A stretch of 40,000 bases of DNA from Vibrio cortegadensis (lineage in GTDB: Bacteria > Pseudomonadota > Gammaproteobacteria > Enterobacterales > Vibrionaceae), in assembly GCF_024347395.1 (NCBI RefSeq), contig NZ_AP025472.1, positions 1,564,465 to 1,604,464 of the forward strand, in the 5' to 3' direction. Below, piece by piece: positions 20,732 through 36,576 of the stretch. The notes under the pieces were generated by a model. The model made no database searches. It was not told the DNA's origin and saw nothing but the letters and a program-made list of their open reading frames with translations. Both the position numbers and the translations under genes were made by a program. Position 1 is the stretch's first letter. The number at the start of each line of letters is the position of its first letter.

Positions 20732-20734
20732 ATC

Positions 20735-22106: not shown

Positions 22107-22121
22107 TCGGAGAAACACACT

Positions 22122-22499
22122 ATGAGTACAGCAACTGCCTTTTTCGTACATGGCATTAAACACACTATCTTCAAGAACTCGGGCAATGCATCGGCTTCCA
22201 TCTACGTTGGCCGCGCATTGAAAGACTTTTCAAACGACAACATGGAAATCAAAGCGGCGGGTTACTTTGACAGTATTGAAGAATTTGAAAAGAACCGCTT
22301 TAAACATTTGGCTATTGAGGAAGTTTACGCTGAGAAAGTGATTAACAGCCGCGCTTTCGTCCCTTATCAGCAATATGAATTACGCACTGCGCCTATGCCT
22401 GATAACCCAATGCAATCGCACGTTGTTGAGATTATTCCTGTTGATGCAGAAGTTAAAAAGCACTTCATGGAATCCATGAAACAAACACCAACTAAATAA
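22122..22499 (+). CDS. Putative ssDNA-binding protein (gene V analogue), assigned by position only
   Basis: 125-aa soluble protein directly after Rep, where inoviruses place their ssDNA-binding protein. No motif-level support. Confidence 0.35.
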   Translation: MSTATAFFVHGIKHTIFKNSGNASASIYVGRALKDFSNDNMEIKAAGYFDSIEEFEKNRFKHLAIEEVYAEKVINSRAFVPYQQYELRTAPMPDNPMQSHVVEIIPVDAEVKKHFMESMKQTPTK

Positions 22500-22520
22500 A
22501 ATTCACATTGGGAGCTAATT

Positions 22521-22742
22521 ATGATTTGTGCAAAGGTTGTTTCTAACACTCTTCAAGTTATTGATTTAGCTCCCGGTGAAGCTTGCCAATTCGTGACTCT
22601 GTTACAGCAGTCTGATTTTGCAAACCCTGAAGCGTTTCTTACAAAAGAGATTGTTTTTACTTTGCTTTCTGCGGCTGCTGGCGTTTATGGATTGGTTTTT
22701 GTGATTGATATATCACTTCGTCAACTTGGTTTTAGAGGATAA
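22521..22742 (+). CDS. Small hydrophobic virion or assembly protein
   Basis: 73 aa with a C-terminal TM (IVFTLLSAAAGVYGLVFVIDISL), directly upstream of the major coat gene. Confidence 0.4.
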   Translation: MICAKVVSNTLQVIDLAPGEACQFVTLLQQSDFANPEAFLTKEIVFTLLSAAAGVYGLVFVIDISLRQLGFRG

Positions 22743-22746
22743 AACT

Positions 22747-22944
22747 ATGAAAAAACTACTTGTAGGTGTTGCACTTACTGCCGTTGCATCAACTCCAGCT
22801 TTTGCGGCTATTGATGTTTCTGCTGCGACTACAGCTATCACTACTGATGGTACTGCGGCAGTTAGCTCAATCGGTCAGGCTTTAATCGGTCTAGCTGGTG
22901 TTGCTGTTGTCTTTAAATGGGCTAAAGGTTCAATTTTCGGTTAA
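22747..22944 (+). CDS. Major coat protein (pVIII-like)
   Basis: MKKLLVGVALTAVASTPAFA/AIDVS... has a signal peptide, an acidic/neutral N-terminus, a hydrophobic core (ALIGLAGVAVVF) and a basic C-terminus (KWAKGSIFG). A GAGGA RBS lies upstream and a strong terminator follows. Confidence 0.85.
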   Translation: MKKLLVGVALTAVASTPAFAAIDVSAATTAITTDGTAAVSSIGQALIGLAGVAVVFKWAKGSIFG

Positions 22945-22960
22945 ACCTTTATGTGAAATC

Positions 22961-22988
22961 GGGGGCTTCGGCTCCCTTTTTTTAGGAT
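22961..22988 (+). terminator. Intrinsic terminator after the major coat gene
   Basis: GGGGGC-TTCG-GCTCCC hairpin (UUCG tetraloop, one G-U pair) followed by TTTTTTT. Confidence 0.8.
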
Positions 22989-22994
22989 TTAATT

Positions 22995-23078
22995 ATGCCT
23001 CTTTATCTAACACCTCAAGACCTTATTTGGGGCTTCGTTCTTCTCCTCCTTTGGGATGCCTTTCGTCGTTTATTTTAA
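22995..23078 (+). CDS. 27-aa hydrophobic peptide (pVII/pIX-like minor coat candidate; not in the ORF track)
   Basis: My translation is MPLYLTPQDLIWGFVLLLLWDAFRRLF. It is preceded by the same 13-nt GGATTTAATTATG initiation region as the pIII-like gene. Confidence 0.4.
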   Translation: MPLYLTPQDLIWGFVLLLLWDAFRRLF

Positions 23079-23090
23079 TTGGATTTAATT

Positions 23091-24578
23091 ATGAGTATTA
23101 AACAAAGCATTACTTTTTTATTTTTATTCTTGGGTGTTTCGTTTAATGCTTCGGCATATTTTGAAAATTATAAGGGTGAAAAGTTTGATTCTTTAGATAC
23201 GGCCTTAACATCATATTTAAATTCTTGTGAGGCTAATGTTTATACCGGGCGGGCTTCTTATATTAAATTCATTGATGGCAGGGTTTCTTCTTCAACTTCT
23301 CTTTACTTAAGGTATTACACTTATACAGATTCAAATTGTTCCAATCTTTATACTGGGGCTAACAATTGGACAACTATTTCTTTCACAAATAATGAATGTC
23401 CTGTTGGTGAAACGTTCAATCAAACTACTGGCGAGTGTGAATCACCTCCTGTATGTACAGATGATCAAGTTTTAGATCCAAACACTGGTGAGTGTGCAGA
23501 GATTCCCTTTTGCAAACGTCAATCTACTTTAGAAGCTATTTTTTCTGAGGAACAAGCTTGTGCGGCTTCAAAAGGTATTTTTAATCATAGCTGTGATGAA
23601 TTCCTTGATAAGTTAGATATGAAATGTACACAGCCTACTGAGTGTGTCATTGGTATGCCAAACTATCCTGATTGTTTGGGTGATTTAAACCCTACAGACC
23701 CACTTACACCGCCTGACGATTTTAATCCTGACCCTTCGAACCCTTCTACTCCTGCGCCTCCATCATTTGATAAAGATGAACCCGATTCAGTTACGCCAGA
23801 TGACACCACTGATAAGGCTGTATTAACGGCTTTACAAAATTTGAATCGTGATAATAACAAAGCTTTTACAGCATTAAATACAGATTTGAATACTGGCTTT
23901 ACCTCGTTAGATAACAAACTTAAAACACTGAATAAATCCAATGATGCAATTGGTAAAGCTATCAAAGAGCAATCACAACAAGATGTTGCCATTCATAACG
24001 CTCAAACCTTATTAATGACTCAACAAACTGGTGCCATTATGAATGGTACTACACAGGTAGTTCAGGGGCTTAATACTCAAACAACACAGCTAAAAGGTTC
24101 TCTTGACGGTGTTGCTCAAGCTATTGGCAATTTACCGTCACAACTAAATGGTGATGTTACTAGTCAAGGTTGTTCTTCTTTTAATTGTACTGGTAGTGCT
24201 CCCAGTTGTTTTCTAGCTAAAGAACGCTGGAGAGTTAATTGTGATGAATTAAAGAATGAAGAATCTGCAACTGAGCAAGGTGCTTTGTTGACTGATACTT
24301 TTCAGGCGTTAACTGAATCAGCTACTGATGAACATGGTGCTTATACCAGTGTATTTACTGATGCCAATGGTTCTGTTGATGAAATGCTTGATGCTTATAC
24401 GTCTGATAATGGTTTCAGCTTTTCTTCTGGTTGTCCTTCACCTCGCACGTATGATTTAAAAATTGCGGTTTGGTCAATTGATTACACTCCTTTTTGTACA
24501 CTAGCTCTCGTATTTCGTGGGCTTCTTTTAGCTTCCGCCTCAATAGCTTCTTTTTTAATGGTAGCTAAATTCATGTAA
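23091..24578 (+). CDS. Minor coat / host-adsorption protein (pIII-like)
   Basis: It has a signal peptide (MSIKQSITFLFLFLGVSFNASA), a Cys-rich N-terminal region, a Pro/Asp-rich linker (DPLTPPDDFNPDPSNPSTPAPPSFD) and a C-terminal membrane anchor. This is the standard pIII architecture and position. Confidence 0.7.
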   Translation: MSIKQSITFLFLFLGVSFNASAYFENYKGEKFDSLDTALTSYLNSCEANVYTGRASYIKFIDGRVSSSTSLYLRYYTYTDSNCSNLYTGANNWTTISFTNNECPVGETFNQTTGECESPPVCTDDQVLDPNTGECAEIPFCKRQSTLEAIFSEEQACAASKGIFNHSCDEFLDKLDMKCTQPTECVIGMPNYPDCLGDLNPTDPLTPPDDFNPDPSNPSTPAPPSFDKDEPDSVTPDDTTDKAVLTALQNLNRDNNKAFTALNTDLNTGFTSLDNKLKTLNKSNDAIGKAIKEQSQQDVAIHNAQTLLMTQQTGAIMNGTTQVVQGLNTQTTQLKGSLDGVAQAIGNLPSQLNGDVTSQGCSSFNCTGSAPSCFLAKERWRVNCDELKNEESATEQGALLTDTFQALTESATDEHGAYTSVFTDANGSVDEMLDAYTSDNGFSFSSGCPSPRTYDLKIAVWSIDYTPFCTLALVFRGLLLASASIASFLMVAKFM

Positions 24579-24603
24579 TAAAAATAACTCATAGGTGATT
24601 TTT

Positions 24604-24984
24604 ATGGGATTCGTATATGGTGCCCTTTCTCTTGTTTTTACTTGGTTACGCAGTGCAATGCCTTGGCTTCTCGGTGCTGTCGGTGCTTCATTTTCTAACT
24701 GGATTGTAAGCGCGGGGTTTGGTGTCGTTGTCTTCTCTGGCTTTAATATTTTGACTAGTCGCCTCATTGGTACGGCTGTCAACTCGCTGAACGGCCTTGG
24801 TGATATTGGTGGGTTTGGTGCTGATATTGTTATGCTTCTCGGCTATATGTGGCTAGATAAAGCTCTTAACCTTGTTATTTCAACGGGTGCTTTTTTAATG
24901 GCGATTAAAGGAGTTCGTCAAGGTATTGCTATGCGTCAAGCTTGGTGGAAACCAGGTCAGAAAACTGGAGGAATGGAAGGTTGA
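24604..24984 (+). CDS. pVI-like minor coat membrane protein
   Basis: ~126-aa very hydrophobic protein between the pIII-like and Zot-like genes (an alternative GTG start lies at 24595). Confidence 0.6.
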   Translation: MGFVYGALSLVFTWLRSAMPWLLGAVGASFSNWIVSAGFGVVVFSGFNILTSRLIGTAVNSLNGLGDIGGFGADIVMLLGYMWLDKALNLVISTGAFLMAIKGVRQGIAMRQAWWKPGQKTGGMEG

Positions 24985-26312
24985 TTTATTTAAGAACTGG
25001 ATTGCCAGGGGCGTCTAAAACTCTTAACTCTTTACGTGAAATTGTGCTTTCTCACGATTCGGGGCGTGAGTATTACTATACAAACATCAAATTACTTATG
25101 TTGGATATTGATGTGGCCTGCTCGTTTTCTGGTTGGTATTACGGCTGGTATTTTCCAAACTTAAAAGACAAGGCTAGTATTCGTAAATTATCTAAGATAA
25201 TGAAACCAATTCACGATGATGGTGAATTTATCACTCTAAATGATGTTCCTTGGCTTCGCTCTCAATATGATAGCCACAATCATTTTGAGACTTGGCTTTA
25301 CTGGGTTCGTCGTGTTTATCCTAAGAAGAAACTTGAGAAGCTAGAATCTATTCTTGATGCTGCTCCTGAAGATACACAAGATAAGTTTGATTTAGTTCGA
25401 CCTCTTAATCTTGATTTTAGAAACTTTCCAGACCCAAATGACTGGCCTACTTTACCTAAGCGTTCAGTCATTCTGGTTGATGAGGTTCAACAATTCTTTC
25501 CACCTCGTGGTGTTGGTTCTCGCGTACCAAAGGCTATAGCAGCCCTTGAGACTCATCGACATGGTGGTTATGACCTTCATTTTGTCACACAAGACAGAAC
25601 CCTTTGTGATGCTAATTTACGTAAATTAGTTGGTCGCCATGTTCATTATTTCAATGCTCTTGGTGGTAAAAAGGTAACTCGCAAAGAAGCACCTAAATGT
25701 TTTGATCCTAATGATTATCATCAGTCTCAAACTGCTTCCAAAAAGATGATTAGCCATGATAAAAAGTTCTATGGTGTTTATTGGTCTGCTGAAATACATA
25801 CCCATAAGTTCAAATTTCCATTCATGGGCTTTGTTGCTATTTTCTTTTTATGTTTGATCCTTTATTCCGCTTATTCTCTATCATCTCAATTATTTGGTGG
25901 TTCAGACTCCAGTTCTCCAGCTGCGCCAACTCAACCAACGCCAATACAAACTGATTCACCTGACATAACAGAAAATCCTGTTGCGGATTTTGTTGATGAG
26001 TTATTAACTGATGTTTATATATCAGGCTCTGTTGTAGAACAGTTCTCTGATGATGTTGTTTACCACTATACATTTGTACGAAGTTCTGACGGTGCTGTTT
26101 TCTATCCCGAAGCAATGGAATTAACACTTGATCCATTAACGCCATGTTTGGCGAATATTAGAATTGGTGAATTGATACGGCCTGTTACTTGTAATCCGTT
26201 TTATGTTCGTGATTCATGGAAAGAAGAAGATATTGAAGATTCAGAAGATGGACAAGCAATTGCCAGTGCTGAGAGTTCAGAGAAATACAAACCCAATATT
26301 AAACTATTCTAA
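24981..26312 (+). CDS. zot: Zot-like assembly ATPase (pI homologue)
   Basis: Likely TTG start at 24981 (TTGA overlap with the upstream stop, GGAGGAATGGAAGG upstream). Similar to CTX-phage Zot as I remember it: GLPGASKT versus GAPGSYKT, VILVDEVQQFFPPR versus FLFIDECGRIWPPR, and ETHRHGGYDLHFVTQ versus DMHRHHGWDICLTT. It has a central TM and a C-terminal periplasmic domain. Confidence 0.85.
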   Translation: MIYLRTGLPGASKTLNSLREIVLSHDSGREYYYTNIKLLMLDIDVACSFSGWYYGWYFPNLKDKASIRKLSKIMKPIHDDGEFITLNDVPWLRSQYDSHNHFETWLYWVRRVYPKKKLEKLESILDAAPEDTQDKFDLVRPLNLDFRNFPDPNDWPTLPKRSVILVDEVQQFFPPRGVGSRVPKAIAALETHRHGGYDLHFVTQDRTLCDANLRKLVGRHVHYFNALGGKKVTRKEAPKCFDPNDYHQSQTASKKMISHDKKFYGVYWSAEIHTHKFKFPFMGFVAIFFLCLILYSAYSLSSQLFGGSDSSSPAAPTQPTPIQTDSPDITENPVADFVDELLTDVYISGSVVEQFSDDVVYHYTFVRSSDGAVFYPEAMELTLDPLTPCLANIRIGELIRPVTCNPFYVRDSWKEEDIEDSEDGQAIASAESSEKYKPNIKLF

Positions 26313-26720
26313 TTGCGCCCAGAAGCGCACCCAATGAACCTACCTACAAATGCGGATCAGCCCCGCAGGGATAAGCAAAGCACGTAGTGCAAGCGAAGCA
26401 CCAAGCCGCCCGACTTTGTTAACTGTGCCGTATGTCTAATCGGCGCGGTTAGCTTCACTATCCTTTGATCGTCCCACTCCCCACACCCTGCCAGAATGCT
26501 TTTAGTCTTTTAAAGGCTTGCGAGTGTCGAGCATGTCTTAATGATTTTTGTATTGGTTCGCGTGCGTGAGCAAAGGGATGGGAAGAGCGGAGCGCCGCCC
26601 TGCTCACGCCAACCCCCGTCATGTATTACGGGGGTACTATCCACGGAACTTTCAACCTTCCCCGACTATTCTCAAGTGTAACGCGCCAGTGTTTGAGCGT
26701 TAGCGAGTCTATATTACAAG
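26313..26720. other. ORF-free, G+C-richer structured intergenic segment (candidate inovirus origin / packaging / att region)
   Basis: No ORF of 60 aa or more on either strand. There are tandem hairpins: GCGTGAGCA (26564-26572) pairs with TGCTCACGC (26601-26609), and CCCCCGT (26613-26619) pairs with ACGGGGG (26628-26634). Confidence 0.5.
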
Positions 26721-26723
26721 TAT

Positions 26724-26746
26724 AAAAAAACCGCCCAATTGGGCGG
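26724..26746 (-). terminator. Intrinsic terminator of the exported-protein gene
   Basis: Perfect 16-nt palindrome CCGCCCAATTGGGCGG (26731-26746), followed on the minus strand by a 7-nt T-run. Confidence 0.8.
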
Positions 26747-26885
26747 CCGACTTCAAGCAAAGGTGTTCAAATTCTTAGAGTTCATAAACTGAACAAGCTT
26801 TACATTACAGAGTAATTTTGGCTCTCTCAATTCTCAATATAAATTATTAATACTCTCTCACATTTCATTGTAATTGATATGCTTC

Positions 26886-27488
26886 TTAGTAATTTTGAGC
26901 TCTTAATTGTGCAATTTTTCTTGCATACTCAGCATCAATTCTGTGAATTTCACGATCCCTTTCACGCTGTAGTCTTTTTATCTCTCGATTAATGTTCACG
27001 TAATTATCAGCCTGGTACTGGATATCACACCTGCTACTTACATCATTAATCGCTTTGTTCGAACCTGACAAATTGAATGATGTATTCATCTCACGCCTTC
27101 CAAAGACATGCACTTGCACATAAGCAGTTGTACCTTGCTTTAATTCATAAAGGATCCGTTTATCTACATTTCTAATCGCTCCTCCTTTATAGGAGGATGT
27201 GAACATATTTCCTTTCAAGTTATACACTCGGCCATTATCAATCTTAATTCTAAAATCGACACTTTGATTTGGTGTCGCAATATTATCTTTACCTGAAAAA
27301 GTTAGAAACAAATCTTTATCATAACGCCCTGAATCACAACGAAAACCCAATGAATTACCATGTGCATAGGTTGTACGCTCATACACCTGCTTGTTATTCA
27401 TATTATCAAAACGCATAGTTTCATTAAACGATGCATTACATACACTTGAAAACATACAAATGGTGAACCCCAAACGAAACCATTTCAT
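26886..27488 (-). CDS. Exported protein with a C-terminal charged coiled coil, function unknown
   Basis: 200 aa with signal peptide MKWFRLGFTICMFSSVCNA/SF, a probable beta-rich body with two Cys, and the tail INREIKRLQRERDREIHRIDAEYARKIAQLRAQNY. It is divergent from the rexA-like gene and very AT-rich. Confidence 0.6.
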   Translation of the reverse strand: MKWFRLGFTICMFSSVCNASFNETMRFDNMNNKQVYERTTYAHGNSLGFRCDSGRYDKDLFLTFSGKDNIATPNQSVDFRIKIDNGRVYNLKGNMFTSSYKGGAIRNVDKRILYELKQGTTAYVQVHVFGRREMNTSFNLSGSNKAINDVSSRCDIQYQADNYVNINREIKRLQRERDREIHRIDAEYARKIAQLRAQNY

Positions 27489-27742
27489 TAATTAAACCTC
27501 CTTACAGTTAAATTTGAGCAACTGATTGCACTATAAGATTTTCTAGGTTGCTCTTATGAGATTTATCTCAAAAATATACAAATAGGCCCAATGTCAACCT
27601 TAGTAAAAGAACAGCACTATATTCACACTGATTTTGTTAACTTTTTTTGTACAGCTCTATTATTATTGAATGACATATCTAATGTTGAGGAGTACCATGC
27701 GAATAAATAAAATTAATAATTAATGACTTAAAGGTTGTATAC

Positions 27743-28687
27743 ATGCGAGTTAGTTACTTTGGCTACCATTTGAACAATATAGACAATCAACACAAAACAT
27801 TGTTTGATATTCGCCCTTTTTTGCATTCTTTTTGTGCTTTAGATGCTGTTCAGTATAAAAATAATTTCACACACTCAGGCGAGCATTTGTATCTTTTTCC
27901 CGTTCATGGTGATGTATTTATGTTCGTAATGACACGTAGCAGTGACATTATCCGAAAAGTAAACACTAGAGAAATTACGGTAGAACAAATTCGTGATCTT
28001 TTAGGCGAAGATAACCAACTGGGGTTTGCTTCATATGTCCTTATCACTGAAAATTGCTTTGGATTCGGTTCAACTTTACTTGCACCTAAATCTGATGTTT
28101 TTATAGAATTTATTAACACAATCTTCATATCTCTTGGTATTGTTAATTGGAAATTAATTCCTTTTGCTTTAACTCATCAAGCTACACGTGCAGAAGCCAT
28201 GGAAATGTCGATTATAGGAACCACTGTGATCGAAATTTCGAAGGAAAATACTTTTGCAGAAGATTTCTTGAGACAATTAGGGATGACTACTGAGGAAACT
28301 CATAATTTAGAAGGCTTTGAATTGACATTTAAGCCTCGGTCAAGACAAAACATTAAGCCCGTTATTACAAACGTATTACAGCAGGTACCCGATGATGGCA
28401 TTACTAAACTGATTATCAAAGCTAAAAATGAAGTATCAGGGCACATGACCGATTTGTACCTAGTTAACTCTGGAATCTTACAAGATGATGTTAATAACTC
28501 TAGTGATCTGGCCATTGCCAGAAACATGGTAACTAAAAAAACCAACAACACCCTATTAACTGAAAAACTTGAGGAGTTTACACAAAATGAAGACCTCTCG
28601 GAAAGCACTATTGACGCTATTTCTCGTTATAATCACATCACTGCCTGGACCGATTTTGTATCTACTGTACAAACTGTTAGTGAATAA
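27743..28687 (+). CDS. rexA: RexA-like abortive-infection sensor protein
   Basis: 314 aa. Several blocks resemble lambda RexA as I remember it: HLYLFPVHGDVFMFVMT versus YLYIHKIDGKTFLFTKT, LGFASYVLITENCFGFG versus LGFPSFLFVEGDTIGFA, FELTFKPRSRQNIKPV versus LDIVIKPKFKRDIKKV, and IIKAKNEVSGHMTDLYL versus SLRAKDEAGDILTEHYL. Confidence 0.7.
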   Translation: MRVSYFGYHLNNIDNQHKTLFDIRPFLHSFCALDAVQYKNNFTHSGEHLYLFPVHGDVFMFVMTRSSDIIRKVNTREITVEQIRDLLGEDNQLGFASYVLITENCFGFGSTLLAPKSDVFIEFINTIFISLGIVNWKLIPFALTHQATRAEAMEMSIIGTTVIEISKENTFAEDFLRQLGMTTEETHNLEGFELTFKPRSRQNIKPVITNVLQQVPDDGITKLIIKAKNEVSGHMTDLYLVNSGILQDDVNNSSDLAIARNMVTKKTNNTLLTEKLEEFTQNEDLSESTIDAISRYNHITAWTDFVSTVQTVSE

Positions 28688-29051
28688 GGTATTAATTGAA
28701 CCTATTGTTTTAGTCGAACAGAAAACAAATATTGCCATTATATTAGCGACATTTGCGTTTACGATGATGGGTTTTTTAGCGGCTGTTATTACTATTTTCT
28801 TTTCGTTCGCTAAATCGAGAACGTTCAAGAAATTCAGCCGTGAAGGTCGTTTTGGCGTATTTTTTACTACTTATTATTACTGTATTATTTCACTCGCTCT
28901 AACCATGTGCTTTGCTTTGGTTACTTTAGGTAAAGGCACCTCTATATGGGCTATGCAAACAGCACTGATTACGACAGTAAATAGCTTATTTCAAATCTGC
29001 TTGATTACTTTTACTATCATTAATTTGAGTAAAAGGGCGATGAAGGAATAG
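28587..29051 (+). CDS. rexB: RexB-like four-TM membrane protein
   Basis: 154 aa from the ATG at 28587 (GAGGAG at 28571-28576). It has four hydrophobic helices, and the loop and tail resemble lambda RexB from memory (FAKSRTFKKFSREGRF versus IGSRTRRLAKIREYGY; FQICLITFTIINLSKR versus IHICILVFQLYNLTRE). It overlaps the rexA-like 3' end by 101 nt in another frame. Confidence 0.65.
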   Translation: MKTSRKALLTLFLVIITSLPGPILYLLYKLLVNKVLIEPIVLVEQKTNIAIILATFAFTMMGFLAAVITIFFSFAKSRTFKKFSREGRFGVFFTTYYYCIISLALTMCFALVTLGKGTSIWAMQTALITTVNSLFQICLITFTIINLSKRAMKE

Positions 29052-29055
29052 ATCT

Positions 29056-29074
29056 AGGCTCCTTTCTGGAGCCT
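29056..29074. terminator. Hairpin between convergent rexB-like and xafT-like genes
   Basis: AGGCTCC-TTTCT-GGAGCCT has a 7-bp stem. There is no strong T-run, so confidence is moderate to low. Confidence 0.4.
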
Positions 29075-29079
29075 TCGTA

Positions 29080-29451
29080 CTAACTGTTCATTATTAACGC
29101 AATACTACGAGCATATTTAAGCAACTTTGACATTGTTTTTACATCTAATTCTGCTTGAATTTCTAACAAAGCAATTCCAGTTAAAATCTCTTGTGGGGTC
29201 ACTAATTGGCCTGTCGGTAGTTCCAGTTTATCATTGCGCATGATGAATAGATTCCAATTATCTGATGGGGCAAGCTCTTTACCTTTATACATTTTCATTA
29301 ATCGCCGACACTCTGGCGGAATAGCTTTTCCTGCGTCCCAAAGCTTGACCGTCCTCACACTTTTAAAACATAGTTCAGCCGTCTTTTCTATACTAATTCC
29401 ACAAACTAATTCACGAAAAATATAATTTTTAGTCATTTCGTGGTACTTCAT
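29080..29451 (-). CDS. HTH + DUF3653-like protein (XafT-like candidate Xer activation factor), copy 1
   Basis: Likely ATG at 29451 (MKYHEMTKNY). It has an HTH-like segment TAELCFKSVRTVKLWDAGKAIPPECRRLM, then W..F......L.LPTGQLVTPQEI. It is a paralogue of the gene at 29779 and starts ~50 bp from dif-like site B. Confidence 0.6.
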   Translation of the reverse strand: MKYHEMTKNYIFRELVCGISIEKTAELCFKSVRTVKLWDAGKAIPPECRRLMKMYKGKELAPSDNWNLFIMRNDKLELPTGQLVTPQEILTGIALLEIQAELDVKTMSKLLKYARSIALIMNS

Positions 29452-29503
29452 TGATAACTCTCTCAAATGAGAAAGATATTATAAAAAGTGCGTATGCAAC
29501 TTG

Positions 29504-29532
29504 ATTTACCATAAGGGCGCATAATACGCACC
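29504..29532 (-). other. dif-like site B with a 7-nt spacer (attP/dif hybrid junction)
   Basis: The plus strand reads ATTTACCATAA-GGGCGCA-TAATACGCACC. The XerC arm is identical to site A. The XerD-type arm has one mismatch (C for A). The orientation matches site A. Confidence 0.7.
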
Positions 29533-29778
29533 GAGGGATTGTTTATTAACATTTGGTAAAACATTGATTAACGCATACATAAGTAATTGATACTTATGCC
29601 GAATTTATATTTAAACCCTATTTAATAACGTTTTGAAATACTTATGATTACTGGCGCTTGCTTTACGTAATCACAGCAAAAAGTCTCTTTTTCCACTGAG
29701 CGACATTTTGTCACGTGAATTGTTAAAAAATCATAAGAAAAAAATATTTCGTCAGTTATTTTATTTGTGAGGCAAATC

Positions 29779-30201
29779 ATGTTTTATGAGTCATTTAAAG
29801 TTCTGTTTTGGCGTGAGTTTACCTCTCACCGCCAAGGTGCTGAGTTTTTCCATGTGAAGATTGTCACAGTTCGACGTTGGCTAGACGGCAAAATCCCTGT
29901 CAATCCGATGGCTGAAAAACTCTTAATCATCAAATCACTTGGTTACTTGCCTAATGATATGCGTTGGCGTGGCTTTCGTATCTGTGAAAAACGTGCGGTG
30001 CTTCTTACCCCAACTGGACGCGAGTTCAGCCCTAAAGAATTAGAAAGCTTTGTGTTTTGGCGTGATGAACATCGACAATTGGTTGAGCAACATGGTCATG
30101 TGGATTACCCAAAGGTTTACCCTGCAAAAGAAAATGTGTTGCCGTTTCGTGGCGGTCGCCGAATGCAAGCCGCCCCGTGGATACCGACTAAATTTAAATA
30201 G
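29779..30201 (+). CDS. HTH + DUF3653-like protein (XafT-like), copy 2
   Basis: ATG at 29779 (MFYESFKVLFW, GAGG 6 nt upstream). It has AEFFHVKIVTVRRWLDGKIPVNPMAEKLLI, then MRWRGFRICEKRAVLLTPTGREFSPKELE. It is divergent from copy 1 across site B. Confidence 0.6.
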   Translation: MFYESFKVLFWREFTSHRQGAEFFHVKIVTVRRWLDGKIPVNPMAEKLLIIKSLGYLPNDMRWRGFRICEKRAVLLTPTGREFSPKELESFVFWRDEHRQLVEQHGHVDYPKVYPAKENVLPFRGGRRMQAAPWIPTKFK

Positions 30202-30204
30202 ACG

Positions 30205-30232
30205 TAAAAAAGCCCGCATTAGCGGGCTTTTT
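30205..30232. terminator. Bidirectional intrinsic terminator
   Basis: AAAAAA-AGCCCGC-ATTA-GCGGGCT-TTTT between convergent genes. Confidence 0.85.
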
Positions 30233-30238
30233 CTTTCC

Positions 30239-31216
30239 TCAGAAAGGAATATCATCATCAAAATCCGAAGAAGGTGGCGGTGGCGGCACTTGTACTGTTC
30301 GCTTTTCAATGGTAATAAACGCAGAATTCCAATTTTCAGGCGTGTAAACTTTAAGCGATTTATTCTCGTCAAAAATCTCTTCTGATATGGTTAACTCAAA
30401 TGAGTTATTGTACCAAGACAAATCGCTTCCAAAAGGAAATTCATACTCTTTATAGCCATATGTTTTCAAAATTTCACCAAGTTCTTGAATATTTTGAAAA
30501 TAAACCCGATGACCTATTCCTAGCTTAGTTCTCAACTCACTAAATGCTGGGTGGCTGTTCATCAGGATATTTTGAATTGCGTCACTTCCTCTATTTTTCT
30601 CTTCGCTTAAAAAAGTAACCAACGTTTTTAAAGTAGCTGAGGTTCTATTTATCTCATCAATTAAATTAACTTCTTTTCGTCGAGAGCTCTCACTCAAAAG
30701 GCTCTGAAAAAGTCCTGCCCACTGCTCTTTCAAATGATTAGTGATATCAACTACAGATTCAAATGCTTGTATTTGATTATTGTTAGGAAGTGAATGTATC
30801 TCATCGAGGAATTGAAAAATTCTATTATCATCTACTGATGCATACTTGATGCTGTCATTATCTTTATTTACTTTATATGTTTGATATTCAGCGTATACCG
30901 TTTTTTCAATAAAAATATAAAGCTGCTTTCCTTTTTTAACAGCCGTAGTTAACTCCACATTTGATACGGAGTGACTGCTATTCCCATGTTGAGATTGGGA
31001 GCCAAATCGACCGCCAATGACACCAACGACAATATCGCAAATTTCAATTTCTTTATAGCAATACTCTTCTAAACGTTTTTCTGAACCATAAGGAATATTG
31101 CCTTTTTCATTCAAAACCGGGTCATACCCTTGCTCTTTAATGAATCGCTCTAAATCATTTCTTATATATTTCAAGTCATAATAAGTCGAGCTTACAAAAA
31201 CACGGGGCTTTGCCAT
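30239..31216 (-). CDS. DUF4062 (TIR/deoxyribosyltransferase-like) N-terminal domain protein with an SSB-type C-terminal tail
   Basis: Likely start MAKPRVFVSSTYYDLKYIRNDLERFI (ATG at 31216; the ORF is open to 31252). The pattern VFVSST..DL...R..L......GY.PV..E.......E.C..EI..CD..VGVIG.R.G...S....E...A...GK matches DUF4062 as I remember it. The C-terminus verified from DNA is TVQVPPPPPSSDFDDDIPF*. Confidence 0.7.
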   Translation of the reverse strand: MAKPRVFVSSTYYDLKYIRNDLERFIKEQGYDPVLNEKGNIPYGSEKRLEEYCYKEIEICDIVVGVIGGRFGSQSQHGNSSHSVSNVELTTAVKKGKQLYIFIEKTVYAEYQTYKVNKDNDSIKYASVDDNRIFQFLDEIHSLPNNNQIQAFESVVDITNHLKEQWAGLFQSLLSESSRRKEVNLIDEINRTSATLKTLVTFLSEEKNRGSDAIQNILMNSHPAFSELRTKLGIGHRVYFQNIQELGEILKTYGYKEYEFPFGSDLSWYNNSFELTISEEIFDENKSLKVYTPENWNSAFITIEKRTVQVPPPPPSSDFDDDIPF

Positions 31217-31296
31217 GTTAAACCTATAATGTAAAAATTGATAATTAATCATATCACTTTAATCTCATACATAAGAATGATGACTCATACAAATAA

Positions 31297-31332
31297 TAAA
31301 AAAGCCGAACCCCATCACGGAGTTCGGCTTTT
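31297..31332. terminator. Bidirectional intrinsic terminator separating the DUF4062 cassette from the corticovirus-like late genes
   Basis: An A-run, then AGCCGAAC (31303-31310) pairing with GTTCGGCT (31322-31329), then TTTT. Confidence 0.8.
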
Positions 31333-31462
31333 GGTTTCCAGTGCAGCAAGCAAAAGCGCACTAAGGTGTTTAATGATTTATAAAACAACCACTTGAACGT
31401 TAACAATGTGTGCGTTAGATGTAAACCATATGGCACGTATGTTTTGAAATGACTCGCACGCC

Positions 31463-31648
31463 CTAGCCCTTTTCTAATGTTTCTAGTACCAACACACGGT
31501 CAGAAACGGCGCGCAATCCCTTTGATAACTCTTGAATGATGTGGTTTTGGTTTCGGATGTTTATGATCATCAAAATACCCAACACCAAAAACTGAGGTGA
31601 AATGCCCCATTCCACCAAGGCGTTAAACAGCGTGCTTTCCATCATCAC
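31463..31648 (-). CDS. Small membrane protein, lysis-cassette accessory candidate
   Basis: 61 aa with one TM (ISPQFLVLGILMIINI). It overlaps the upstream holin-like gene and is the last gene of the operon. Confidence 0.4.
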   Translation of the reverse strand: MMMESTLFNALVEWGISPQFLVLGILMIINIRNQNHIIQELSKGLRAVSDRVLVLETLEKG

Positions 31649-31850
31649 CGCCCTTGCCTTTCAATTCATCCCGGAATGCTTCCCACAACCCAACCACCGC
31701 AGGAATGGCAAGACCAACCGCACCGCCAAGATTTACGCCCGTTTGGGTAATTTCAGCACTGAATAAATGACCGTAGCCCGAAGATGCCGCAATCACTGAA
31801 CCAAGCAGCACAAGACCGCGCCACGTTGATGTTTGTTTAAGTTTTAGCAT
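31623..31850 (-). CDS. Holin-like two-TM protein
   Basis: 75 aa with two hydrophobic helices and a charged C-terminus (DELKGKGGDDGKHAV), downstream of the putative muralytic gene. Confidence 0.45.
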   Translation of the reverse strand: MLKLKQTSTWRGLVLLGSVIAASSGYGHLFSAEITQTGVNLGGAVGLAIPAVVGLWEAFRDELKGKGGDDGKHAV

Positions 31851-31862
31851 GTGTATTCCTTA

Positions 31863-32318
31863 CTATGCGAGTTTGACGCCTTGCATGGCATCGCTGAATG
31901 AGTAATGGCGACCCACTTCCATGATTGACATAGAGTGCAGCACTTTAGCCAATAGTTGGTCATCGTTTAGGTTGATGGATTCATTGACGCCAACACCGAC
32001 CTGTTTTGCTACGAACTGTGCGTAATTCTTCGTATCATTTTCTACTGGCGGTGCGAATCGGTTAATGATTTCGTTTAGATTGTCGAGTCCATGCGCCCGT
32101 TGATAGGTTCGCAAGGTTTTAGCGCCCGCCCGAAAGCCATATTTATGATGGGTATAGCTTTCAAATTCAGCATCACGGGAAAAGCTTGTTTCCCCTTGCC
32201 AATCGTTGCCTTTTCGAATGTTCAGCGGGTTATTGTTGCGAATTCCGCGGATGGTTTTTTTTGTCATATAGAGTGCAAAGCCCCCAAAGAAAATGAAGAT
32301 AATCAGATATAAACGCAT
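31863..32318 (-). CDS. Membrane-anchored phage protein with an RNNNPLNIR motif (putative muralytic/structural)
   Basis: 151 aa with an N-terminal TM and the motif GIRNNNPLNIRKGNDWQGE, which recurs in phage virion-associated or cell-wall-active proteins as I recall. Function not certain. Confidence 0.45.
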   Translation of the reverse strand: MRLYLIIFIFFGGFALYMTKKTIRGIRNNNPLNIRKGNDWQGETSFSRDAEFESYTHHKYGFRAGAKTLRTYQRAHGLDNLNEIINRFAPPVENDTKNYAQFVAKQVGVGVNESINLNDDQLLAKVLHSMSIMEVGRHYSFSDAMQGVKLA

Positions 32319-32320
32319 GG

Positions 32321-33340
32321 TTACACCTTGTAAAAATCAAACCCTGTCGGCATGGATGAATATTGAAAACTCATTTGCATGGCTTCAAGCTGTGCCGCCG
32401 ATGGGATATGGTCAACGGGATATTGGAACACCTTATAATCGCTGCCATGCTCGGTGATGGTTTGCACATGATAGCCAGATGCCAACATATGACGCGCCAT
32501 GCCAAACGGCGCATGAATTGCGTTGTGGTTAAAGCGAATCAAGCCCGCGCCCAAATCTTCAAAACCTATGGGTTTCATACAATCGGTCGCTTGGTAGTAT
32601 GGCGGCGCATGAGTAAATTCAAGCTTGGCAAGGTCGGCATCATCTGCCACAAACCCACACACGCCACGTTGAAGCCCAACAATGCCGGAATTTCTGACTT
32701 CCAAATACAACGCAACGTATGACGGTTGTTCAACCTGTACATTATTTTTCAGCGCACCAGAATCACAAGTCACAAAGCCGTCACCCGCAAAATCGGTGTG
32801 AATTTTTGAAGCTACTTTGTCGCCTAGCGTATGGCTGCCATCTTCACTCATGTGAATGAATCGAAAACCCACTTCCACCTCCGCGCCCGCCAATGCCATG
32901 ACATTGAACGCCGCACGAACAGACTTGCTTTCATCATTTTGTGGTGCGACCGGACGCAACACTTGATACATGGTGAAACCTTGGCACATGATTTGTGCAA
33001 AGTGCCGATTGGGTAACGTGTTGAGGTAATAATTACCCACACGGGACACGGGCGCGGTAATGCCCGCACCTGGTTGAACTTGAATTGCCCAACCATGCGC
33101 CAACATGAATTCAGCGCGCCCACCTAATGAGGTGACATTTAATGAAAATGGACGGTCAGAGCGTGATTGCGTGGTGACAAAACCACGGGCGCACATGCCA
33201 TGAAAATGACCGTTATCAATGAGGTTTGTGACTGCACCACCTGCCAACTTGCCCAACTCTTCGGCAAGGTATTCAATTTTGTTTCGGCTACTGCCATGCG
33301 GCAAATTTTTAAAAATTTCGTTCATGGGGTAAAGCTCCAT
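32321..33340 (-). CDS. Putative vertex/spike (receptor-binding) protein
   Basis: 339 aa, similar in size and position to the PM2 spike protein P1. There is no motif-level support. Confidence 0.35.
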   Translation of the reverse strand: MELYPMNEIFKNLPHGSSRNKIEYLAEELGKLAGGAVTNLIDNGHFHGMCARGFVTTQSRSDRPFSLNVTSLGGRAEFMLAHGWAIQVQPGAGITAPVSRVGNYYLNTLPNRHFAQIMCQGFTMYQVLRPVAPQNDESKSVRAAFNVMALAGAEVEVGFRFIHMSEDGSHTLGDKVASKIHTDFAGDGFVTCDSGALKNNVQVEQPSYVALYLEVRNSGIVGLQRGVCGFVADDADLAKLEFTHAPPYYQATDCMKPIGFEDLGAGLIRFNHNAIHAPFGMARHMLASGYHVQTITEHGSDYKVFQYPVDHIPSAAQLEAMQMSFQYSSMPTGFDFYKV

Positions 33341-33350
33341 AATTTGAGTG

Positions 33351-34010
33351 TTAAGACTCTAAGATAAATACGCGGTCAGTTGCAGCGCCCGTGAGTGCAA
33401 TGAGTGCGGAAGATTCAATATCAATCCGCTCACCCGCACTAAGTGGGTAAGCATTGTTAATCAACACATCACCTGTATTGGCGGTTGCTGCCTTGATGGT
33501 CACTTTGAAACGTGATGAATCAAAAGGAAGTTCAACGGGCAATGCTGAATCTTGTGCATTGATGCTTTTACTTCTCTTGAGTACCACAGGCGTTCGCTGT
33601 GAGACTTTAATCACTTGGTCGGGCGCAATTTCAACGGGCGGTAATGTTTCAAGGCTAACGGTTTGACCTGCTGCAATTTCCACCGCAGGAAGTGAATCAA
33701 TCGACGCGGTTAAGTGTTGGTTTTCTGCAATCACCATTGCGGGCATCACGCTTACTTCAAGCTGTTGCCCTTCCATTGGTGGCGTAAAATCTCCCACGCC
33801 ATGCTCAAACACCAAGCGACCAACGCCCGTGATGAAAATGCGCCCAAAGCGACTACCTGTGTTTTTATACAGTGATTTTTGCGTAAGCGTAAAAACCGCA
33901 CCTGTGGACTCAATTTCAATCTGAATTTTGCCCGTGGATAACTCCACAAACAGCCATTCAGAATCAAGCGTGACAGGGATTTTTTGTCCTTCAATAAGGT
34001 TCAATTCCAT
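33351..34010 (-). CDS. Putative structural protein
   Basis: 219 aa with a beta-rich composition. Its start overlaps the upstream stop by 1 nt. Confidence 0.35.
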   Translation of the reverse strand: MELNLIEGQKIPVTLDSEWLFVELSTGKIQIEIESTGAVFTLTQKSLYKNTGSRFGRIFITGVGRLVFEHGVGDFTPPMEGQQLEVSVMPAMVIAENQHLTASIDSLPAVEIAAGQTVSLETLPPVEIAPDQVIKVSQRTPVVLKRSKSINAQDSALPVELPFDSSRFKVTIKAATANTGDVLINNAYPLSAGERIDIESSALIALTGAATDRVFILES

Positions 34011-34426
34011 TACTTAACCGCCTTATAAGTGACAAAACCCAACACGGCAGCAACGAACATCATTAAGTACAAATTCATTGAATTTTGCTTACTTTGCCCG
34101 CCGTCCTTATTGAATTTGGCAAGCTCCATCATCGCGTTAATGTTTTTTGTGTTTTGCGTGGCTTGATTACCCGCAAGCCCTGCCATCATTTGCAAATTTT
34201 CACTGTTGCTTGAGCTGTATTCCTCCAACACACCGGAGGCAAAATCTGTGTTGATTTCGTGCATGTTTTCGGCGGCTTGAATTGCGCCGTGGTCGGTAGC
34301 GGTCACATTGATAGTGGAGTCATTGACTCCACTAATCGCCGTCCCTAAGTTGTCACCACTAATGGCATTTTGACCGCTAACGTTAGTGGTTTGGGTTTTG
34401 TTACTGGATTTGGATTTTCCACCCAT
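34010..34426 (-). CDS. C-terminally anchored virion membrane protein candidate
   Basis: 138 aa, Ser/Asn/Gly/Gln-rich, with C-terminal TM LYLMMFVAAVLGFVTY. Confidence 0.45.
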   Translation of the reverse strand: MGGKSKSSNKTQTTNVSGQNAISGDNLGTAISGVNDSTINVTATDHGAIQAAENMHEINTDFASGVLEEYSSSNSENLQMMAGLAGNQATQNTKNINAMMELAKFNKDGGQSKQNSMNLYLMMFVAAVLGFVTYKAVK

Positions 34427-34428
34427 GA

Positions 34429-34800
34429 TTACACCTTCATTTCCATGTGGGTTACGTCACCACATGCGTGTTCTTCGGTACTCAGGCGGCGACACAATCG
34501 CGCCACCAATGGAAAATAGGTTTCTGCTGAAATAGACGATAATCCCGCGCTTTTTACGTAGGCTTTCAACTCTCGCATTGCCGGAATAACGCCGCGTCCA
34601 GAAACGCCCCAAAGAAAGTAAGAATGACCGATAATCTCACCCGCCACCGTGACACGGTAACTATCATCAGATAACTCATAAAGGCTTACGCGCCCTGCGT
34701 TCACCTCATGTTTGAGTTTTTCAAATTCAGCCGGACAAGCTCGAAATGCTACTTTCAACCGCGCCAATGCGCGGGGACTATCAGAAACCAATTCAATCAT
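34429..34800 (-). CDS. Hypothetical phage protein
   Basis: 123-aa soluble protein with an ATGA overlap on the upstream gene. Confidence 0.4.
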   Translation of the reverse strand: MIELVSDSPRALARLKVAFRACPAEFEKLKHEVNAGRVSLYELSDDSYRVTVAGEIIGHSYFLWGVSGRGVIPAMRELKAYVKSAGLSSISAETYFPLVARLCRRLSTEEHACGDVTHMEMKV

Positions 34801-34991
34801 CTTTTAAGTGCCACCAAGGCAATCACTGCCACTATGCTCAATAACAGCCAAGGCTTTGCGCCTTTTGAGCCTCCCATACTAATCCCGCCCACGCTTTGCC
34901 CTGCGTTGGTGGTATTGGCGGCGGTCGATGGTCCCGCAGAACCACCCGTGAAACCGCCACCCCCTGTTAAACTGGTTAAACTGCCTAACAT
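34797..34991 (-). CDS. Gly-rich small membrane protein
   Basis: 64 aa with a Gly-rich N-terminus and C-terminal TM WLLLSIVAVIALVAL. It resembles the small internal-membrane proteins of PM2-type viruses. Confidence 0.45.
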   Translation of the reverse strand: MLGSLTSLTGGGGFTGGSAGPSTAANTTNAGQSVGGISMGGSKGAKPWLLLSIVAVIALVALKR

Positions 34992-35000
34992 TCGTCCCCC

Positions 35001-35135
35001 TTAAAAGAACTTGAGCATGGCAAGAATCGCCACCAATAGCGCCGCGAACCATAAGAGGTTTTTGGCGCCATCACTGAGACTAAACCCGACCCATACACCA
35101 GTAAGCGCAACCACCGGATAAACAATCAATGGCAT
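35001..35135 (-). CDS. 44-aa two-helix membrane peptide (not in the ORF track)
   Basis: My translation is MPLIVYPVVALTGVWVGFSLSDGAKNLLWFAALLVAILAMLKFF. It fills the gap between flanking genes exactly. Confidence 0.4.
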   Translation of the reverse strand: MPLIVYPVVALTGVWVGFSLSDGAKNLLWFAALLVAILAMLKFF

Positions 35136-35136
35136 G

Positions 35137-35478
35137 TTATTTCCCCTTCACTGCGAAATAGACCGCGCCCGCCAATACCAAGAACCCGCCACCAATGGCT
35201 AAATACATGCCGTAGTTATTCGGCGATTGGCGATAAACCACATCGCCATTAGGTTGTTGGTAATCGTTGCCGTCCCCACGGTGTGCGCTTGGGTTCGCTG
35301 AGTTAGATTGTTGCGCGTCTTCGTTGAGTTTGTTGGTGATAAGGTCGGGCGCAATGTCCCCGACTAAATCCACCGCACCACCAATGAGTTCACCGCCACT
35401 TTCTAAGATGCTTTCCCACCACGAACTTGACGAGGACTCGTTAAAAATATCCATATCGGTTTCCTTTGGTACTGGCAT
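35137..35478 (-). CDS. Small virion membrane protein candidate
   Basis: 113 aa with C-terminal TM MYLAIGGGFLVLAGAVYFAV. Confidence 0.45.
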   Translation of the reverse strand: MPVPKETDMDIFNESSSSSWWESILESGGELIGGAVDLVGDIAPDLITNKLNEDAQQSNSANPSAHRGDGNDYQQPNGDVVYRQSPNNYGMYLAIGGGFLVLAGAVYFAVKGK

Positions 35479-35486
35479 GACGCCCC

Positions 35487-36320
35487 TTACTTGGCTTGTG
35501 GTGAGATTTCGCCAACTTGCTCAATGGCTTCGATAATCACAGGCACGCTTCCCGCGCTTGCTTTCTCTAATTCAAATTGCAGTTGTTTAGCGGCATTGGT
35601 AGAAAGGCGACCTTCAACACCAAAACCAGTACGAACAAAATCAAGCGTGAACCATCCCGCGTTTTGCTCTAAACCCGCCACGGCAAGGTCAAAAGCGTTA
35701 TCTGCTTTAGATACGTTGATTTCTTCACGCTCGTCACGCATGACACGAACACGGTCAATCGTGTCGTCTTTGAAGTGAATACGTTTGATTGAAAGGAACG
35801 GTGAACGCTCGGCAAAATCGAACGGAGTGCGACCGGACGCCGCCGCGTACCACGTTAATGAATACAGACGCGGCAAATAAATGCGGCGAGATTGGGCGGC
35901 GGTTGTGTGGGCGCGTGCTTTGATTGATGGCGCGGCTTGGTCGGCTTTGGCTTTAAGCTGAATGTAAAGCATCCAGATTTCACCCTGTAGCGTCACCAGT
36001 TCACCCGTGCGAACACCCGCCTTTGTGCGAAGCGTTAGATCAGCAAATGGGATGATGTAGCGCCCTTTTTGCGTGAACTGTTTGCGGTGCTCTTGAAAGT
36101 CCACCAAATCTTGACCTGTCACACCAATGATTTCTTTACCGTTTAACTTGAGCGTGACGCGCTCAATGTCTGCTGGGTCAAGAATGTCAGTGACTAATTC
36201 AATGTTTTGGTAAGTGGGACCCGTTACCACGCGCAATGTTGCCTGATTACCCCAGTTAACACCTTCAACCGGGTCTAACTCACGTGGGCGTGGGTTAAAT
36301 GGTGTGTTCATCATTTCCAT
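35487..36320 (-). CDS. Major capsid protein, PM2 P2-like (double jelly-roll lineage)
   Basis: ~277 aa from MEMMNTPF. Blocks resemble PM2 P2 as I remember it: PTYQNIELVTDILDPADIERVTLKLNGKEI versus QTYEVIDLRYSGVTPSQIKNVRVELDGRLL, FTLDFVRTGF versus YTIDFMLEGD, and a similar C-terminal LQFELEK...IIEAIEQVG. The size matches. Confidence 0.65.
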   Translation of the reverse strand: MEMMNTPFNPRPRELDPVEGVNWGNQATLRVVTGPTYQNIELVTDILDPADIERVTLKLNGKEIIGVTGQDLVDFQEHRKQFTQKGRYIIPFADLTLRTKAGVRTGELVTLQGEIWMLYIQLKAKADQAAPSIKARAHTTAAQSRRIYLPRLYSLTWYAAASGRTPFDFAERSPFLSIKRIHFKDDTIDRVRVMRDEREEINVSKADNAFDLAVAGLEQNAGWFTLDFVRTGFGVEGRLSTNAAKQLQFELEKASAGSVPVIIEAIEQVGEISPQAK

Positions 36321-36457
36321 TAGAACCACCCCTTATCACCATTAATCGTGTCTTTTACAGCGCCTAACGCTGACACGTTGTTAATAAGGGCAAGAATGCC
36401 AACCGTAAGCAATACCGTAGTGCCTAGGGGAATAAGCGTGCTTTTATTTAGTTTCAT
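36320..36457 (-). CDS. 45-aa membrane peptide, first gene of the structural operon (not in the ORF track)
   Basis: My translation is MKLNKSTLIPLGTTVLLTVGILALINNVSALGAVKDTINGDKGWF. It has a GGAAAGG RBS and a TAATG overlap with the capsid gene start. Confidence 0.4.
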   Translation of the reverse strand: MKLNKSTLIPLGTTVLLTVGILALINNVSALGAVKDTINGDKGWF

Positions 36458-36541
36458 AAACCTTTCCAGTTTGTGAGTGAATAAATCATTCAATAGAGAG
36501 GCTTTAAGGTTGGCGATTTTGAGGAAATTAAACAGAGGGAG

Positions 36542-36576
36542 TAACCTAATAGGTTAAGGCTTTAACCTATTAGGTA
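36542..36576. promoter_or_regulatory. Twin palindromic operator-like sites
   Basis: TAACCTAATAGGTTA (36542-36556; AACCTA-A-TAGGTT is a perfect dyad) and TAACCTATTAGGTA (36563-36576). The centres are 21 bp apart. They lie in the 200-bp gap between the structural operon and a divergent small ORF. Confidence 0.55.

Follow-up and report, generated by a model that had tools for sequence, protein, structure and literature searches.

Two different candidate defence cassettes face one another across a single dif-like site in the chromosome of Vibrio cortegadensis, each beyond a gene of the xafT family, which raises the question of what these cassettes belong to. The locus lies in a stretch of 40,000 nucleotides of contig NZ_AP025472.1 (positions 1,564,465 to 1,604,464), hereafter the window, whose first letter is position 1 of all coordinates given here. 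The interval is the junction of a filamentous prophage and a tailless PM2-like prophage, placed head-to-head at the chromosomal dif. The first, a Vf33-like inovirus prophage, occupies 19539-29503 and is bounded by two dif-like sites; the second, a corticovirus-like double-jelly-roll (DJR) prophage, extends from 29532 to beyond 40000. The arrangement is very probably explained by two tandem prophages at dif, each of which has a phage-encoded hypervariable defence slot beside its xafT gene.

Cargo genes on both sides of site B

The canonical dif-like site at 19512-19538 (+ strand, ATTTAACATAA-TACACA-TAATACGCAC) forms the junction between host DNA and the inovirus. It is an exact pattern match with a 6-nt spacer and agrees with the Vibrio dif consensus quoted by Ma & Zhang 2025 (PMC12715192). 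The second site, site B (29504-29531, + strand, ATTTACCATAA-GGGCGCA-TAATACGCAC), is a hybrid dif-like junction at which the two prophages meet; its spacer is 7 nt long, and its single mismatch to the canonical site is in the XerD arm. Each site gave 0 matches in 100 shuffles, and the two are the only dif-like sites found within 19.3-40 kb. A degenerate, inverted dif-like sequence (19393-19419, - strand) was observed approximately 100 nt to the left of the canonical dif. [quoted passage not shown]

A XafT homologue is found on either side of site B, and each is transcribed away from it. The inovirus ends with the xafT-like gene 1 (29080-29466, - strand), which lies 38 nt from site B and whose product matches the NCBIfam family VC1465_fam (XafT) at 3.3e-10 and phrog_1668 at 9e-56. 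The xafT-like gene 2, of the p15 type (29767-30201, + strand, probably starting at the ATG at 29779), terminates the DJR prophage and lies 236 nt from site B. Its product matches Pfam DUF3653 at 1.4e-20 (73.6 bits, against a cut-off of 22.4), VC1465_fam at 4.8e-11 and phrog_8213 at 2e-81. The two proteins are homologous to each other (BLASTP 5e-4; hhalign 1e-4 at 58% probability) and have a match to phrog_1668 in common, and protein searches returned relatives of xafT2 in Vibrionaceae only. The group phrog_1668, which gathers inovirus XafT-like proteins, carries the label 'tail assembly protein', almost certainly a mis-annotation of a Xer activation factor or regulator.

The XafT protein was established by Midonet et al. 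2019 (PMC6744903), where the TLC-phi XafT, and that protein only, was shown to bind and activate XerD independently of FtsK. The same study reports that the DUF3653 gene varies by subclass in its position and orientation relative to dif, which accounts for the mirror-image layout at site B. Like the TLC-phi XafT (VC1465), the window proteins are putatively of the helix-turn-helix and DUF3653 type, and their genes lie no more than a few hundred bp away from a dif-like attachment (att) site in an integrase-less element. They differ in their scores on the family model (40 and 43 bits against a cut-off of 70) and in their carriers, which are phages, whereas TLC-phi is a satellite. In addition, site B has both arms, unlike the TLC phage attachment site (attP) as described.

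The gene orders given in the first-pass annotation were confirmed by the listing of open reading frames (ORFs) and by family scans: leftward from site B, xafT-like 1 is followed by RexB/RexA and an exported protein, and rightward, xafT-like 2 is followed by a DUF4062 gene. The cargo beyond each xafT gene is low in guanine plus cytosine (GC), and both blocks are, as had also been proposed, richer in AT than the viral modules. The GC content of the left block (cargo 1) is 0.344 against 0.394 for the inovirus core, and that of the DUF4062 gene 0.343 against 0.473 for the DJR module; the host DNA has 0.408. By contrast, the view of the cassettes as extras that accompany the viral modules had to be abandoned. 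A relaxed search allowing 6/21 mismatches found no third dif-like site between zot and cargo 1, and, at the same tolerance, none between the DUF4062 gene and the lysis and holin genes of the DJR prophage. As no dif-like site separates cargo from phage genes, the cargo is part of the two prophage genomes, where it is flanked by xafT on one side and by morphogenesis or lysis genes on the other. Separately bounded cassettes with an att of their own ("site A") were dropped on the same result.

Strong terminators had been expected to bracket both cargo blocks, and this was borne out in part. A strong terminator-like hairpin with a T-run, detected by the terminator scan at 26729-26748 and reading on the - strand, closes the left side of cargo 1. 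On the other side of site B, a strong hairpin with a 12-bp stem and T-runs on both strands (30206-30233) lies between xafT2 and the DUF4062 gene, and upstream of that gene the late operon of the DJR prophage ends in a strong terminator with a 15-bp stem (31300-31332, - strand). The expectation therefore stands for both sides of the DUF4062 gene and for the left side of cargo 1, but fails at the rexB/xafT1 boundary, where only a weak 6-bp hairpin without a T-run was found. An Rfam search of 19.3-32 kb gave no match, and a megablast of 26300-31500 against phage records returned short xafT and intergenic matches only, with no cargo in common.

A variable slot in related prophages

Related loci were surveyed within Vibrionaceae, with the xafT sequences of the window as seeds. 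Scans of viral contigs yielded 154 relatives of xafT1 and 38 of xafT2, about 190 related loci, and a scan of species-representative genomes provided 75 further xafT2 loci in Vibrio, Photobacterium, Enterovibrio, Grimontia and Thaumasiovibrio. In 29 unique loci, relatives of xafT1 and xafT2 stand head-to-head, ~310 nt apart, and every one of these intergenic regions (29/29) contains a dif-like motif with a 7-nt spacer at the position equivalent to site B. The closeness of a xafT-like gene to a dif-like site seen in the window thus recurs in these 29 unique related junctions.

The genes next to xafT are highly variable in these relatives. For the inovirus slots, 47 cargo arrangements were counted in 52 unique xafT1-to-pIII regions, a variability of zot-xafT content that characterizes the CTX-I inoviruses. 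From zot to xafT, the genes form 87 variable clusters, whereas the pIII, pVI and zot clusters are conserved. Twelve cargo families were found with more than one zot type, which indicates that cargo families shuffle by modular exchange. The packaged genomes of Vf33 (7965 nt, locus L002) and of the V. cyclitrophicus inovirus PQ189387 likewise have variable genes between zot and the xafT-like gene. A DUF2726 protein (~190-220 aa) was observed beside zot, on the xafT strand, at 4984-5652 of locus L062 and in 8 other inovirus loci, that is, in 9/52 unique inovirus slots and with two zot types.

The corresponding region of the DJR prophages, between p15 and the lysis gene, is variable as in the dif-type DJR prophages. 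The 22 + 44 unique xafT2-to-lysis regions measure 0.2-3.3 kb and encode 33 + 56 protein clusters, most of them singletons. The defence scans were run on cluster representatives and counted per family, not per protein. By PADLOC and Pfam, the representatives match AbiLi, AriA (PARIS), PtuA (Septu), Old, GajA (Gabija), ThsA and ThsB (Thoeris) and KwaB (Kiwa), and also HEPN_AbiU2, Abi_C, DUF4145, DUF4238, RloB, NACHT, Fic and others. Neither RexAB nor the DUF4062 protein of the window was found in another slot among the first 118 loci. A DUF4062 homologue with 52% identity adjoins a p15-type xafT in V. caribbeanicus. At this locus (L140, 6986-11542), the p15-type xafT is followed by small ORFs, the DUF4062 homologue (with an SSB-tip-like ending, DDIFF), a protein resembling DUF2971 and a membrane protein. 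The 7 kb downstream contain no DJR structural genes that could be recognised, and the element may be a degraded or cargo-only IMEX.

The comparison proposed in the first-pass annotation thus came out in its favour: the neighbouring genes in relatives are neither conserved nor unrelated to defence, and the idea of a dedicated, variable and defence-rich accessory slot beside the Xer module is upheld by the 47 arrangements in 52 regions, the many defence families and the conserved flanks. Such slots have been described before. Steensen et al. 2024 (PMC11630473) report that accessory genes concentrate in a hotspot close to the borders of the filamentous and tailless prophages that Vibrionaceae carry at dif and dusA. 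PMC12715192 defines "pHVRs", which lie between zot and xafT in the "CTX-I" inoviruses and, in the "dif-type" DJR prophages, between a lysis gene and p15, the homologue of xafT; it gives sizes of ~1.9 kb and lists PARIS, restriction-modification, CBASS, Abi and OLD among the contents. It also figures an inovirus+DJR tandem array and uses rstR/xafT terminal gene pairs to find elements. As integrase-type DJR prophages have the same slot beside int, according to that paper, the slot is a feature of the lysis/lysogeny boundary and is not specific to Xer.

The window slots share with those published their positions (zot-xafT and p15/xafT-lysis gene), a size range of ~1-3 kb, the terminal gene pairs, the inovirus+DJR tandem arrangement at dif and a defence-rich variable content, and no difference in kind emerges from those passages. 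[quoted passage not shown] The slot architecture and its reading as a site of defence genes were thus already published in 2024-2025, and the window is a further instance.

Prophages and satellites of the P2/P4 type and hotspot 5 of the SXT integrative and conjugative element are known defence hotspots. The window slots resemble them as fixed positions between conserved element genes that hold diverse, exchangeable defence systems. They differ in that the window elements use the host XerCD together with XafT instead of an integrase of their own, in their other flanking genes, and in their much smaller size. A protocol of Rousset et al. is among the works cited in PMC12715192.

RexAB, an exported protein and a DUF4062 protein

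Cargo 1 consists of an exported-protein gene and a rexAB unit that diverge from a common AT-rich spacer. The RexA homologue (27743-28687, + strand) matches Pfam RexA at 1.7e-58 (198.5 bits, against a cut-off of 25) and PADLOC RexA at 3e-62, and has 24% identity to lambda RexA across 84% of its length (E 2e-19, tblastn to lambda rexA). The RexB homologue (28587-29051, + strand) matches PADLOC RexB at 1e-23 over 138/141 model positions and displays, by eye, four hydrophobic segments. By the two components of PADLOC, the pair is a complete predicted Rex system. The apparent start of rexB, the ATG at 28587, lies within the end of rexA, giving an overlap of 101 nt (28587-28687), and the RexB model aligns from residue 12 of a longer ORF that starts with TTG.

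In the lambda model, the sensor RexA opens the membrane channel RexB, and the ensuing depolarisation aborts infection. The window pair resembles the lambda system in being prophage-borne, with RexA followed on the same strand by a RexB homologue with four transmembrane segments. It differs in its carrier, a filamentous inovirus instead of a lambdoid phage, in its location outside a cI immunity operon and in the overlap of the two genes. No RexA was found in the filamentous phages of the INPHARED collection, and the window RexAB thus puts a known system into a host-phage context that is new. The divergent gene of cargo 1 (26886-27488, - strand) encodes a protein of 200 aa that begins with a signal peptide and has a coiled coil near its C-terminus. 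Its family recurs in 6/52 inovirus slots and in 3 V. cyclitrophicus inoviruses (41% identity).

The DUF4062 (TIR-like) gene, cargo 2, is carried on the - strand (ORF 30239-31252; 30239-31216 when read from M13, giving 325 aa) and is shut off from the late operon by the terminators on its two sides. Its product matches Pfam DUF4062 at 1.4e-18 (67.3 bits) and is 100% identical to a V. cortegadensis protein. An AlphaFold2 model with a predicted local distance difference test score of 85 comprises a TIR-like domain, a helix of 65 residues, a small alpha/beta C-terminal domain and a disordered tail. A Foldseek search of this model against the PDB returned matches to TIR, NDT and SARM1 folds; the PDB entries of KpSwz post-date the Foldseek library, and KpSwz was found by a sequence search of the PDB. 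The catalytic residue, E88 of 325, aligns with E97 of KpSwz. A profile of 63 homologues aligns to KpSwz at positions 4-103 only (E 3e-5), and because the alignment is confined to this N-terminal core, the protein is, judged by sequence, a member of the superfamily outside Swarozyc proper.

Two 2026 preprints describe DUF4062 proteins as single-gene NAD+-depleting abortive-infection systems: Swarozyc, which is triggered by a phage portal, and Evangelion, for which escaper mutations implicate phage recombination proteins. The window protein has in common with Swarozyc (KpSwz, PDB 10wc) and Evangelion (Eva01) an N-terminal DUF4062 TIR-like domain with a conserved catalytic Glu. It also resembles KpSwz in length (325 against 326 aa), in a helical stalk followed by a C-terminal sensor region, and in standing alone on mobile elements, but its C-terminal domain is unrelated in sequence. 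A further difference is that the window lineage has a conserved SSB C-terminal-tip motif; SSB is mentioned in neither preprint. In the literature search, SSB-tip motifs were discussed for phage triggers only, DRT10 being an example. By analogy with these systems, the DUF4062 cargo would most likely deplete NAD+ and abort infection as a single gene, in the manner of Swarozyc and Evangelion, with a sensor domain of its own and an SSB-tip tail.

Homologues of the DUF4062 protein are likewise encoded by single genes, and no conserved partner gene was found in the contexts of V. caribbeanicus, Aeromonas, Pseudomonas or a V. vulnificus integron cassette array. Those of Aeromonas and Pseudomonas are isolated insertions. 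The V. vulnificus homologue (L119, 8001-8951; also in L120 and L121) is 54% identical, ends in the SSB tip and lies a few cassettes from an integron-type integrase. As rplT adjoins this integrase and CcdAB and DUF645 cassettes lie nearby, the gene is placed in a chromosomal superintegron cassette.

The C-terminus of the window protein (30239-30262) reads DFDDDIPF, which equals the C-terminal tip of E. coli SSB. The hexapeptide of the SSB tip is DDDIPF (PMC5872125). An ending of an acidic residue followed by [IVL]PF is present in 79/120 close homologues, with DDDIPF as the family consensus, and the linker that precedes the tip varies from 0 to 31 residues. Among representatives of 50%-identity clusters with the same C-terminal domain, the strict tip is found in 52/91 and a PF ending in 63/91, against 2/59 with the strict tip for representatives that share only the N-terminal part. 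Five proteins of the same DUF4062 lineage (P0252, P0274, P0283, P0330 and P0357) have another recurrent motif, DPFAD[EQS], at the C-terminus in place of the tip.

From this conservation we infer that the tail is probably a functional mimic of the SSB tip. The tail could act as a bait on which phage replication or recombination proteins dock, and multivalent binding would then oligomerise and activate the NADase. Alternatively, it could be an autoinhibitory or tethering element that would be freed when phage SSB or single-stranded DNA accumulates. We put forward, as a tentative proposal with the odds somewhat against it, that the gene belongs to a so far undescribed lineage of TIR-like NADase defences encoded by single genes, in which the conserved mimic (F)DDDIPF on the disordered tail plugs the effector into the SSB interactome. 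This SSB-tip lineage of DUF4062 proteins is the one part of the finding that may be new.

Prophage context and competing explanations

The inovirus core (19514-26312) begins with an rstR-like repressor gene (19514-19891, - strand; Pfam DUF3693/HTH_19), which abuts the canonical dif-like site; the 3' end of this ORF overlaps the junction (19514-19538), so that the att site supplies its last codons. It is followed on the + strand by a Rep_trans initiator (20892-22106; Pfam Rep_trans), a DUF1293 protein (22122-22499; Pfam DUF1293), pIII-like (23079-24578) and pVI-like (24595-24984) proteins and Zot (24942-26312; Pfam Zot). Relatives of its pIII, rstR and rep genes occur in Vf33-like loci. The element has the features of a CTX-I inovirus, which is XafT-positive and CtxA/B-negative and runs between dif-like flanks from rstR to xafT: it encodes a XafT-family protein (3e-10), no toxin family was found among its zot-xafT genes, and its two ends are formed by rstR and by the xafT1 gene next to site B. 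Downstream of zot lies a GC-rich (0.52), structured intergenic segment (26313-26750) that ends in the terminator-like hairpin. Its single-strand DNA fold has a z of -2.5, and 26611-26711 have 81-88% identity with other Vibrio inoviruses; the segment is probably the inovirus intergenic region, containing an origin or a packaging signal. To the left of the canonical dif, host genes occupy 1-19311, the last of which encodes a hybrid histidine kinase.

The body of the DJR prophage (31463-40000 and beyond) is carried on the - strand. It comprises holin-like genes (31463-31850), an endolysin (31863-32318), a P2-type major capsid protein (35487-36329; Pfam P2_N 4e-49, P2_C 2e-38), a packaging ATPase (36974-37699) and a GPA-type Rep (Phage_GPA 2e-58) that runs from 38846 past the end of the window. 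It has the marks of a dif-type DJR prophage, namely a PM2-type capsid with a packaging ATPase (PHROG matches phrog_8536 and phrog_2666) and a terminal p15 beside a dif-like site, here the DUF3653 protein next to site B. The possibility that the Rep is a truncated pseudogene was rejected, as its frame has no stop before the window end and relatives have a Rep of 606 aa. Short, near-identical phage contigs, in which the ATPase is 100% identical, display at their far end this 606-aa Rep, a divergent gene of 87 aa and a half dif-like site (the GTGCGTATTA arm). No integrase was found among the scanned ORFs of 29.5-40 kb, a set that does not include every ORF of the interval.

Taken as two tandem prophages, the locus reads as a left phage running from rstR to zot, cargo and xafT, and a right phage running from xafT/p15 to cargo, lysis, capsid and rep genes. 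Neither appears to have an integrase, and each has a XafT-family factor beside a dif-like attP. By analogy with the TLC-phi XafT, this factor would activate the host XerD and allow XerCD to integrate the phage at dif. The two phage types differ in the side of attP on which xafT sits, and their integration in tandem therefore sets the xafT genes back to back across site B and makes the two slots look like mirror images. The slot itself is the hypervariable region from the last morphogenesis or lysis gene to xafT, filled with horizontally acquired units of lower GC content. These units would presumably be expressed from the prophage and protect the lysogen, and hence the prophage, from other phages.

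Alternatively, the xafT and cargo blocks could be independent, cargo-only satellite IMEXs of the TLC-phi kind, lodged between two phages. TLC-phi is indeed a small XafT-bearing satellite (PMC6744903), the V. caribbeanicus element combines a p15-type xafT and a DUF4062 homologue with no DJR structural genes in the 7 kb downstream, and PMC12715192 mentions degraded elements that retain the variable region alone. However, even with 6 mismatches allowed, no dif-like site separates the cargo from zot or from the holin genes, the isolated or complete phage genomes of Vf33 and PQ189387 contain both xafT and cargo, and xafT is the sole candidate integration factor in either phage, all of which makes intervening satellites very improbable. 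That the mirrored layout is a coincidence of one genome has next to no likelihood: the window holds one array only, but the 29 unique head-to-head junctions with the same spacing of ~310 nt refute this explanation, and the same array type appears in Fig. 6a of PMC12715192.

The cargo could also serve ends other than defence, such as virulence, colonisation, the regulation of lysogeny, or the exclusion of phages of the same type only. The exported protein without defence homology and the DUF4062 protein without a PADLOC match would accord with this, as would the thermostable direct haemolysin (TDH) that is present in some slots according to PMC12715192 and the statement in PMC11630473 that most slot genes are unannotated. 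We nevertheless regard it as unlikely, given that RexA and RexB are a classical abortive-infection pair with strong matches, that NADase defences of the DUF4062 type have been demonstrated in the 2026 preprints and that defence families abound in the slots of relatives.

Several observations weigh against two phage-borne defence slots, the reading preferred here. With regard to the elements, the far end of the DJR prophage, with the p16 repressor and the second junction, lies outside the window, xafT1 has no match to Pfam DUF3653 at E <= 0.1, and both xafT products score below the curated VC1465_fam cut-off. The terminator-like sites total 6, against 3.9 +/- 2.0 in shuffles, and are not above chance. 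As to the cargo, RexB reaches 14.8 bits in Pfam, under the cut-off of 27, and the exported protein has no family in Pfam, PADLOC or NCBIfam and no assignable role. The DUF4062 protein has no match in PADLOC (2023), and nothing significant in its C-terminal half is homologous to the auxiliary (sensor) region of KpSwz. The survey used naive ORF calling and the predicted prophage borders of IMG/VR, and the figures given in PMC11630473 are modest, with complete defence systems in 8.5% and 18.6% of loci, plus incomplete ones. Lastly, the whole analysis is computational.

The slots matter because small prophages that lack an integrase and sit at dif prove to be compact vehicles of bacterial immunity. 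Mining their variable regions is a practical route to new defence genes, a prospect already realised in print for Vibrionaceae (2024, 2025). Through its tail, the DUF4062 lineage gives simple and testable access to the question of how infection is sensed by a TIR-like NADase. If the proposed connection of this tail to the SSB interactome is true, a new principle of sensing would already have come out of the slots beside xafT in Vibrio IMEX prophages.

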